NCBI RefSeq assembly: GCF_988242995.1
Contig: NZ_OZ547043.1
DNA length: 64,000 nucleotides
Direction: 5' to 3' (one strand)
Shown here: piece by piece, positions 16,656 to 16,701 of the stretch
Layout: each line of letters starts with the position of its first letter
How positions within the stretch are numbered: position 1 is the first letter of the stretch
Notes under the pieces: model-generated
Database searches by the model: none
What the model was told of the DNA's origin: nothing
The model's input: only the letters and a program-made list of their open reading frames with translations
Made by a program: the position numbers and the translations under genes

Positions 16656-16701
16656 ATCCCTTAATTGTGCATGCTGTTGCGACTATGCACAATTAAGGGA
16701 T
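16656..16701. promoter_or_regulatory. 17-bp perfect inverted repeat with 12-bp spacer in the divergent panE/yajQ promoter region (candidate operator)
   Basis: atcccttaattgtgcat-(gctgttgcgact)-atgcacaattaagggat. Confidence 0.4.

Follow-up and report, generated by a model that had tools for sequence, protein, structure and literature searches.

A perfect palindrome between panE and yajQ of Escherichia coli, a probable dual-use element of mirror-image promoters and an RNase III stem

The spacer between the divergent genes panE and yajQ of Escherichia coli contains a perfect palindrome that probably has a dual use: at the DNA level it would provide two mirror-image sigma-70-type promoters, and at the RNA level it would form a stem for RNase III in the yajQ leader that begins at the distal promoter P3. 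The palindrome is real and functional, and it is essentially already known and explained, since the longest perfect palindrome of the analysed DNA turns out to be a published RNase III target that houses the panE-yajL promoter together with one yajQ promoter, and not an orphan regulator site. What is new here is a modest synthesis of public data, namely the mirror-image gene starts inside the palindrome and a scenario of promoter replacement.

The palindrome and its genomic setting

The window (the whole stretch of DNA that was analysed, 64,000 nucleotides) is a piece of E. coli chromosome carrying thiI, yajL and panE on the minus strand, followed by yajQ on the plus strand, yajR and cyoE, with gene names taken from the RefSeq annotation at identical E. 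coli loci (Table 1). In K-12 (NC_000913.3), panE lies at 443604–444515 and yajQ at 444683–445174, so that window positions equal the K-12 coordinate minus 427903. Published positions in U00096.2 equal NC_000913.3 minus 776 in this region, a conversion verified with a p19 small-RNA sequence placed in the window.

Table 1 Features of the panE/yajQ region in window coordinates.
Feature	Position	Strand	Details and basis
panE (2-dehydropantoate 2-reductase) CDS	15701–16612	-	RefSeq annotation, identical loci
Distal yajQ promoter P3, inside panE CDS	16501–16513	+	-10 TACAAT 16501–16506, TSS 16513; Cappable-seq 443640 (score 35.9); Huang 2020 file 1 '443641 P'
Overlap of P3 yajQ leader and panE mRNA 5' end, ~142–145 nt	16513–16657		Sense/antisense duplex cut by RNase III; p19 duplexes; 'Divergent' dsRNA entry MS-115
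Lineage-specific segment holding the palindrome	16646–16706		Net gain ~53 bp, spanning 61 bp; alignments; spacer lengths 167 bp vs 113–129 bp
Palindrome left arm TATCCCTTAATTGTGCAT	16655–16672		Perfect 18-nt complement of 16685–16702
panE-yajL promoter	16657–16692	-	-35 TTGTGC 16692–16687, 17-bp spacer, -10 CACAAT 16669–16664, TSS A 16657; SMRT-Cappable-seq; exact mirror of P2
yajQ promoter P2	16665–16700	+	-35 TTGTGC 16665–16670, 17-bp spacer, -10 CACAAT 16688–16693, TSS A 16700; Cappable-seq, SMRT-Cappable-seq; hexamers from sequence and crude position weight matrix
Published RNase III cleavage position, NC_000913.3:444573	16670	+	Left arm, three bases from loop; Gordon et al. 2017
Non-palindromic centre GCTGTTGCGACT, 12 nt	16673–16684		Hairpin loop; also within the 17-bp spacer of both promoters
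Palindrome right arm ATGCACAATTAAGGGATA	16685–16702		Perfect complement of left arm
Small GC-rich hairpin GTCCTG-GTG-CAGGAC	16704–16718	+	+5 to +19 of P2 transcript; replaces ancestral panE -10 box
Proximal yajQ promoter P1	16742–16755	+	-10 TATTAT 16742–16747, TSS 16755; Cappable-seq 443882 (strongest, 63.7); SMRT-Cappable-seq 444657; outside palindrome
yajQ (nucleotide-binding protein) CDS	16780–17271	+	RefSeq annotation, identical loci

The palindrome occupies 48 bp between the panE start codon (16612, minus strand) and the yajQ ATG (16780). A preliminary description of the region had given it as a 17-bp perfect palindrome around 12 nucleotides, of which the perfection and the 12-nt centre hold, but the arms are 18 nt long (16655–16672 and 16685–16702). 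Its placement at ~100 bp upstream of yajQ and ~65 bp upstream of panE was accurate, the distances from the centre at 16678.5 being 101.5 bp to the yajQ ATG and 66.5 bp to the first base of the panE start codon. Across the 64-kb window no other perfect inverted repeat is as long, the runner-up having arms of 13 nt, and arms of 18 nt around a loop of 3–40 nt are expected by chance 3.5e-5 times per window and 2.6e-3 times per 4.64-Mb genome.

Further occurrences of the half-site, which the preliminary description had suggested searching for, did not appear: there is no second copy in the 64-kb window, where the next matches carry three mismatches and are at chance level, and of 5426 complete E. 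coli genomes, 5424 give a single locus with a 58-bp BLAST query. Two BLAST places are returned per genome, the self-complementary palindrome being hit on both strands.

Folded as RNA, the palindrome reaches -31.3 kcal/mol on the plus strand and -30.2 kcal/mol on the minus strand, with z-scores of -7.3 and -7.6, respectively, and a fold energy equalled by none of 200 shuffles. Flanking pairs lengthen the helix by ~4 pairs beyond the 18 perfect ones, giving the continuous double-stranded helix of roughly two turns (~20 bp or more) that RNase III needs in a substrate. An Rfam search of positions 16400–17000 at a permissive threshold returned no relevant family, with a single chance snoRNA match at E = 3.6.

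Transcription starts and RNase III processing

Published transcription start site (TSS) maps, a check that the preliminary description had called for, place starts of both genes inside the palindrome. Cappable-seq (Ettwiller 2016) reports a plus-strand start at U00096.2:443827 with a relative read score of 43.2, which is window position 16700. SMRT-Cappable-seq (Yan 2018) reports yajQ (b0426) starts at 444602 and 444657 in 0-based numbering, corresponding to window positions 16700 and 16755, and a start of the panE-yajL operon (b0425|b0424) at NC_000913.3:444560 on the reverse strand, corresponding to 16657. This last start was forecast from symmetry and later confirmed in the SMRT-Cappable-seq data: with perfectly complementary arms, the minus strand bears the same two hexamers as the plus strand, which predicts a panE start at 16657. 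The panE-yajL and P2 starts occupy exact mirror positions (16657 + 16700 = 16655 + 16702), each two bases inward of the outermost base of its arm.

The sequence around these starts has the geometry of sigma-70 promoters. On both strands CACAAT ends 7 nt before the mapped start, in line with a -10 element (A at position 2, T at position 6, 6–8 nt from the start), and TTGTGC stands at 17-bp spacing, in line with a -35 element (TTG, 16–18 bp). All three palindrome-related starts are purines. Each palindrome promoter matches the consensus at 7 of 12 positions and scores 5.4 bits with a crude sigma-70 frequency matrix, a score that arises ~7.6 times per kb per strand; it is the best-scoring candidate in the panE direction within the spacer, at a score that is not significant alone. 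A consensus promoter scan of the region gave no site, even at the mapped proximal yajQ start, its thresholds being too strict here. Because the palindrome promoters are weak by consensus, the promoter call rests on the TSS maps, with which the sequence geometry agrees.

Both cap-based datasets originate in the same laboratory, and they alone contain the P2 start at 16700. The panE start has independent support in the tables of Huang 2020, which list a divergent overlapping 5' UTR pair from 443641 (plus) to 443783 (minus) and a boundary of a dsRNA-immunoprecipitation region at 443780 (U00096.2). The base of a hairpin can yield cDNA artefacts, a caveat against which the panE start is covered by that support. 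Our literature search returned no polymerase-binding or hexamer-mutation experiment on the palindrome promoters.

In the proposed mechanism, one arm would supply the -35 element TTGTGC and the other the -10 element CACAAT, with transcription running outward on each strand. Each -35 is the complement of the other promoter's -10 region, so that, from the geometry, only one RNA polymerase should be accommodated at a time, and initiation at panE and at yajQ P2 should consequently compete. Starting 3 nt inside the outer ends of the palindrome and running outward, the panE-yajL and P2 transcripts include no more than 3 nt of it and lack the hairpin.

Whole-hairpin RNA has a different source. Besides P2, yajQ has a proximal promoter, P1, and the distal P3, with Cappable-seq relative read scores of 35.9 for P3, 43.2 for P2 and 63.7 for P1. 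The P3 -10 element TACAAT ends 7 nt before its start at 16513, which in the published TSS maps is the only start upstream of the palindrome and the only mapped source of RNA containing the entire hairpin. The P3 leader of yajQ is 267 nt long, and the 18-bp stem is retained in its predicted full-leader fold. P3 and panE transcription run towards each other from starts 144 bp apart, and the dsRNA cluster and the p19-captured 21–22-nt RNase III products described by Huang 2020 (U00096.2 443643–443777, window 16516–16650) all fall between the two starts.

The hairpin itself coincides with a known RNase III site. Gordon, Cameron & Pfleger 2017 (mBio 8:e00128-17, PMC5371410) list 'Intergenic (panE-yajQ)' at NC_000913.3:444573 (their Table 1 and Table S1), with 96 reads in an rnc deletion strain against 2–3 in the wild type, a 32- to 48-fold difference. 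In the passages of that paper that deal with the site, purified RNase III cleaved it in vitro, with ends placed by 5' RACE, the site is assigned to the yajQ 5' UTR, a complementary hairpin is considered possible on either strand, and the half-life of yajQ mRNA is given as ~6 min in the wild type and ~3 min in the rnc deletion mutant, making the message about twice as stable with RNase III; those passages do not mention TSSs inside the palindrome. According to the primers given in PMC5371410, the in vitro substrates had artificial 5' ends, at window position 16474 for the 'yajQ' RNA and inside yajQ for the 'panE' RNA; the experiment therefore proves cleavability, not that the major natural mRNAs carry the hairpin.

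The mapped starts narrow down where the hairpin is made. The panE mRNA reaches no further than 16657 at its 5' end, so that the rnc-dependent signal at 16670 must stem from the intramolecular stem. Reading through the palindrome, the P3 leader would fold into the perfect 18-bp stem plus flanking pairs, which RNase III would cut at ~16670, and the enzyme would also cut the 142–145-bp duplex formed by this leader with the 5' end of panE mRNA. As the stem occurs only in the distal-promoter transcript, the published stabilisation of yajQ concerns a sub-population of its messages. The preliminary description had raised a structured leader and the site of a dimeric regulator as possibilities; the leader is thus borne out for P3 transcripts of yajQ by the published RNase III site, while the regulator site finds no support. 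That description had also made the case depend on conservation, protein binding or an associated transcript boundary, and three such boundaries are tied to the palindrome.

Conservation and evolutionary origin

The 58-bp segment containing the palindrome is identical to the window in 98.7% of 5424 E. coli genomes, as is the left 58-bp flank (panE 5' UTR) in 97.3% and the right 58-bp flank in 56.7% of them. Judged by these frequencies, the palindrome is under constraint within E. coli. In E. albertii, 48 of 48 bp are identical including the centre, and ~6 of 77 bp differ to its right. Beyond the window, the Escherichia sample covered E. coli, Shigella and E. albertii, and the comparison with other species drew on 80 yajQ loci plus further loci reached through PanE homologues.

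Conservation across Enterobacteriaceae, which the preliminary description had proposed to check, extends to Escherichia and the Citrobacter freundii group, but not to Salmonella, Enterobacter, Leclercia and others. The panE/yajQ spacer measures 167 bp in Escherichia and 174 bp in the C. freundii group (werkmanii, youngae, braakii, sp. FP75), both with a homologous element, and 113–129 bp in Salmonella, C. amalonaticus, Enterobacter, Leclercia, Pseudescherichia, Superficieibacter and others, where the palindrome is absent. Among the loci compared, the extra DNA is confined to Escherichia and the C. freundii group. One assembly labelled 'C. freundii' (L092) has no element and an amalonaticus-like look; on account of this mismatch, species labels were not relied on. 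The same spacer bears unrelated insertions in Kluyvera and in a metagenome-assembled genome (MAG).

The element is less symmetrical in Citrobacter. In seven sequences, 12–14 of the 18 stem pairs are kept, the centre is variable and 13 nt long, and fold z-scores range from -3.9 to +0.5, the latter no better than shuffles. Counted against Citrobacter, nine pairs are invariant, six break and three have changed on both sides, which gives marginal support for covariation of the stem, with too few independent lineages and essentially one Escherichia/Citrobacter split. Two motifs are invariant between Escherichia and Citrobacter, ATTGT.C (left arm) and G.ACAAT (right arm), and they correspond to all four promoter hexamers; in Citrobacter, where the spacing is 18 bp, the plus-strand pair reads TTGTTC-18-TACAAT and the minus-strand pair TTGTAC-18-AACAAT. 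Promoter function thus appears to be the shared, conserved function of the element, and the perfect stem appears specific to Escherichia.

In species that lack the element, a TATAAT or TATACT box oriented towards panE stands immediately to the right of the insertion point, and the Citrobacter group retains this TATAAT/TATACT box besides the element. E. coli has GGTGCAGG in its place, now part of the small hairpin at 16704–16718. The palindrome would have entered within ~53–61 bp of extra DNA in the Escherichia/C. freundii-group lineage, and in Escherichia, where the TATAAT/TATACT box is destroyed, we infer that the palindrome-borne promoter took over from the ancestral panE promoter. From the alignments, an ancestral promoter thus seems to have given way to a small palindromic insertion. 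An origin from a mobile element was rejected: a 69-bp query found no match in phage records, and its 'plasmid' matches were records of 1.2–4.9 Mb, that is, mislabelled chromosomes.

Alternative readings and related systems

Promoter function constrains ~7–8 positions per arm and therefore leaves the 18/18 symmetry and the invariant Escherichia loop unexplained. The perfect symmetry might have been selected as a single device, in which mutually exclusive mirror promoters are combined with an RNase III stem that parts the yajQ message from its antisense-to-panE leader, a proposal that we put forward tentatively and regard as doubtful.

Less likely still is an operator for a dimeric or tetrameric repressor of both divergent genes, a reading that would be compatible with the promoters. 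The comparison that invites it is bioO, a 40-bp palindrome bound by BirA that overlaps the divergent bioA and bioB promoters, the bioA and bioBFCD promoters being arranged face-to-face or overlapping around it. As there, an inverted repeat of 40–48 bp covers the promoter cores of two divergent biosynthetic genes, and, by this analogy, an additional palindrome-binding protein may act at panE/yajQ. A long perfect palindrome exactly overlapping two promoters is what an operator would look like, the symmetry and loop are kept in E. coli and E. albertii beyond the needs of the promoter hexamers, and the invariant core ATTGT.C / G.ACAAT is itself palindromic and would suit a half-site too. The half-site centres, however, are separated by 30 bp, the half-site is not seen again anywhere in the 64-kb window and has one locus per genome at the sensitivity of the 58-bp query, and the Citrobacter arms diverge asymmetrically, with 4–6 mismatches, while keeping the promoter hexamers. 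The panE/yajQ promoters also differ from the bio system in firing outward from the palindrome edges, with no cognate repressor indicated. Neither panE nor yajQ is known to have a regulator, and the literature reports no binding factor besides NtrC in vitro.

It is improbable, more so than an operator, that the palindrome is a neutral relic, left by a palindromic insertion or inverted duplication (a template-switch product or a dead miniature element) and cut by RNase III incidentally. Such a relic would fit the lineage-specific extra DNA in which the palindrome lies and the unrelated insertions that the spacer took up in Kluyvera and the MAG, as well as the decay of the stem in Citrobacter; a recent inverted duplication would also yield perfect symmetry. 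Neutrality is difficult to reconcile with 98.7% identity of the palindrome against 56.7% for the right flank in the 5424 E. coli genomes, and with the lack of any change between E. coli and E. albertii. The element is single-copy, with no phage match and plasmid matches only to mislabelled chromosomes. Moreover, the palindrome contains the only panE-yajL start mapped by SMRT-Cappable-seq and the ancestral -10 is gone, so that its loss would leave panE without a mapped promoter.

An NtrC or sigma-54 site in the palindrome or its right flank, which would tie panE and yajQ to nitrogen status, is very improbable. Shimada et al. 2021 report a genomic SELEX peak for NtrC (type A, 41% intensity) at 443,846 in the panE/yajQ spacer, and three half-site-like pentamers (GTGCA or TGCAC) occur at 16667, 16686 and 16710. 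This support is in vitro only, the searched text of Shimada et al. 2021 does not name the spacer among its gel-shift probes, and the supplement gives no site sequence. The best match to the 17-bp box, TGCACCAnnnTGGTGCA, has 5 of 14 positions mismatched and is equalled or bettered 181 times in the 64-kb window; inspection showed no GG-N10-GC sigma-54 promoter. Beyond the weak, 41% SELEX peak the literature yielded no factor, and no NtrC box is present; the preliminary description had not recognised the palindrome as the site of a named regulator.

A DNA-level cruciform (for replication, recombination or supercoil sensing) or a transcription terminator is hardly credible: negative supercoiling, which divergent transcription produces between the two genes, could drive extrusion of the 18-bp perfect arms, but the 12-nt centre disfavours extrusion, the stem is AT-rich with no T-run after either arm, and, as panE and yajQ both point away from the palindrome, there is nothing to terminate. 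An intrinsic terminator was likewise rejected by a scan that flagged only the neighbouring small hairpin and not the palindrome.

Read as mirror promoters plus an RNase III stem, the palindrome shares features with several described systems. The panE-yajQ site of Gordon et al. 2017 (mBio 8:e00128-17) is the same object, with 444573 in the left arm, and ahpC and pflB are described in the same paper as having messages that, like yajQ, are more stable with RNase III. The leader hairpins processed by RNase III in rnc, pnp and adhE, and R1.1 of T7, likewise place a long, near-perfect double-stranded stem in a 5' leader; the palindrome differs from them in that its DNA is also the core of two promoters and its stem is present only in the P3-derived share of yajQ RNA. 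The locus further appears in both catalogues of divergent, overlapping 5' UTR dsRNAs (Lybecker et al. 2014; p19 capture by Huang et al. 2020), as MS-115 'Divergent' and as cluster 46 'panE 5'', respectively. The intermolecular duplex recorded there lies left of the palindrome, which adds an adjoining intramolecular stem.

In symmetry-driven bidirectional promoters (Warman, Forrest, Wade & Grainger 2020/2021; Grainger lab, NAR 2026), symmetry leads to divergent starts as it does here, and binding at one promoter should exclude binding at the other. Members of that class have shared or overlapping -10 elements and starts 7–25 bp apart, with a mode of 18 bp, whereas the palindrome starts are 43 bp apart and its -10 boxes (16664–16669 and 16688–16693) are separate, each overlapping the other promoter's -35. 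The palindrome therefore falls outside the class, and the main text of the NAR 2026 paper does not mention yajQ. REP/BIME, ERIC/IRU and miniature inverted-repeat transposable elements (MITEs) resemble the palindrome as short intergenic inverted repeats, and the palindrome is an insertion relative to sister taxa; unlike them, it is single-copy in 5424 genomes and has no Rfam match, and it does not resemble the GC-rich REP consensus. Membership of the REP/BIME, ERIC or MITE families, for which many dispersed copies are needed, was rejected, with one locus seen per genome.

These findings do not overturn the current understanding of the region. They indicate that the regulatory annotation of panE and yajQ should put both start sites within the palindrome, at a compact natural locus that, within 250 bp, combines convergent transcription and competition between promoters with antisense pairing and processing by RNase III. 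If the single-device proposal were true, the palindrome would couple synthesis of the coenzyme A precursor (panE) and YajQ both transcriptionally and post-transcriptionally, and would also provide a documented example from Escherichia in which a palindromic insertion has replaced a promoter.

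Variation of the panE-yajQ spacer

Comparison of the spacer between panE and yajQ in other taxa shows a length of 179 bp in Kluyvera (locus L007) and 170 bp in the MAG OH_SBB_50 (L009), with insertions in both that are unrelated to the palindrome-bearing element; indels seem to occur readily in this spacer. One assembly labelled Citrobacter freundii (L092, GCA_044479065.1) does not carry the element and, in contrast to the rest of the freundii group, has a 113-bp spacer of the C. amalonaticus type, which means that the assembly is assigned to the wrong species or that the element is polymorphic.

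Natural disruptions are also present within E. coli. In strain 13TMH22 (L083, NZ_CP019256.1), the IS3-family element IS1203 lies within the left arm of the palindrome, with its junction at ~16663/16664, so that the palindrome is destroyed and the panE start site is cut off from its -10 box. This disruption was found in 1 of 5424 genomes, and a second interrupted genome (NZ_LT883142.1) has its break near 16726.

Sequence motifs and secondary structure

We observed three pentamers resembling NtrC half-sites within and next to the palindrome; a full NtrC box is absent, and the pentamers may underlie the in vitro SELEX peak published for NtrC in the panE-yajQ spacer (Shimada et al. 2021). Among the perfect inverted repeats of the window, two with 13-nt arms come next in length after the palindrome, and the one with the shorter loop looks like a terminator or REP-type stem.

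Features in and around the panE-yajQ spacer and further inverted repeats of the window
Feature	Position	Strand	Sequence	Description
NtrC half-site-like pentamers	16667, 16686, 16710		GTGCA/TGCAC	n=3
GC-rich hairpin	16704-16718		GTCCTG-GTG-CAGGAC, then TGTTGGTTAT	small
Distal yajQ promoter P3	16501-16513	+	TACAAT	TSS 16513, within panE coding sequence
Perfect inverted repeat	24110-24156		TTATTTAGCCGTA	13-nt arms, 21-nt loop
Perfect inverted repeat	1395-1425		TGAAATGCCGGAT	13-nt arms, 5-nt loop

The small hairpin beside the palindrome is the sole terminator-like hit in the region, covering nucleotides +5 to +19 of the transcript from yajQ P2 and occupying the exact place of the ancestral panE -10 box of relatives (AGTATAGCGC, + strand). 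It could serve as a stabilising 5' stem-loop or as a weak attenuator for the P3 and P2 transcripts.

Operon structure and convergent transcription

At 15701-15744, the reading frame of yajL overlaps that of panE by 38 bp according to the RefSeq annotation, or by 44 bp if the longer GTG-start ORF is taken, consistent with the single panE-yajL operon of the SMRT-Cappable-seq data. P3 and the panE promoter are convergent, with 144 bp between them, and the overlap of their transcripts is filled with RNase III duplexes from published p19 capture (Huang 2020). This convergence favours transcriptional interference, besides antisense pairing.
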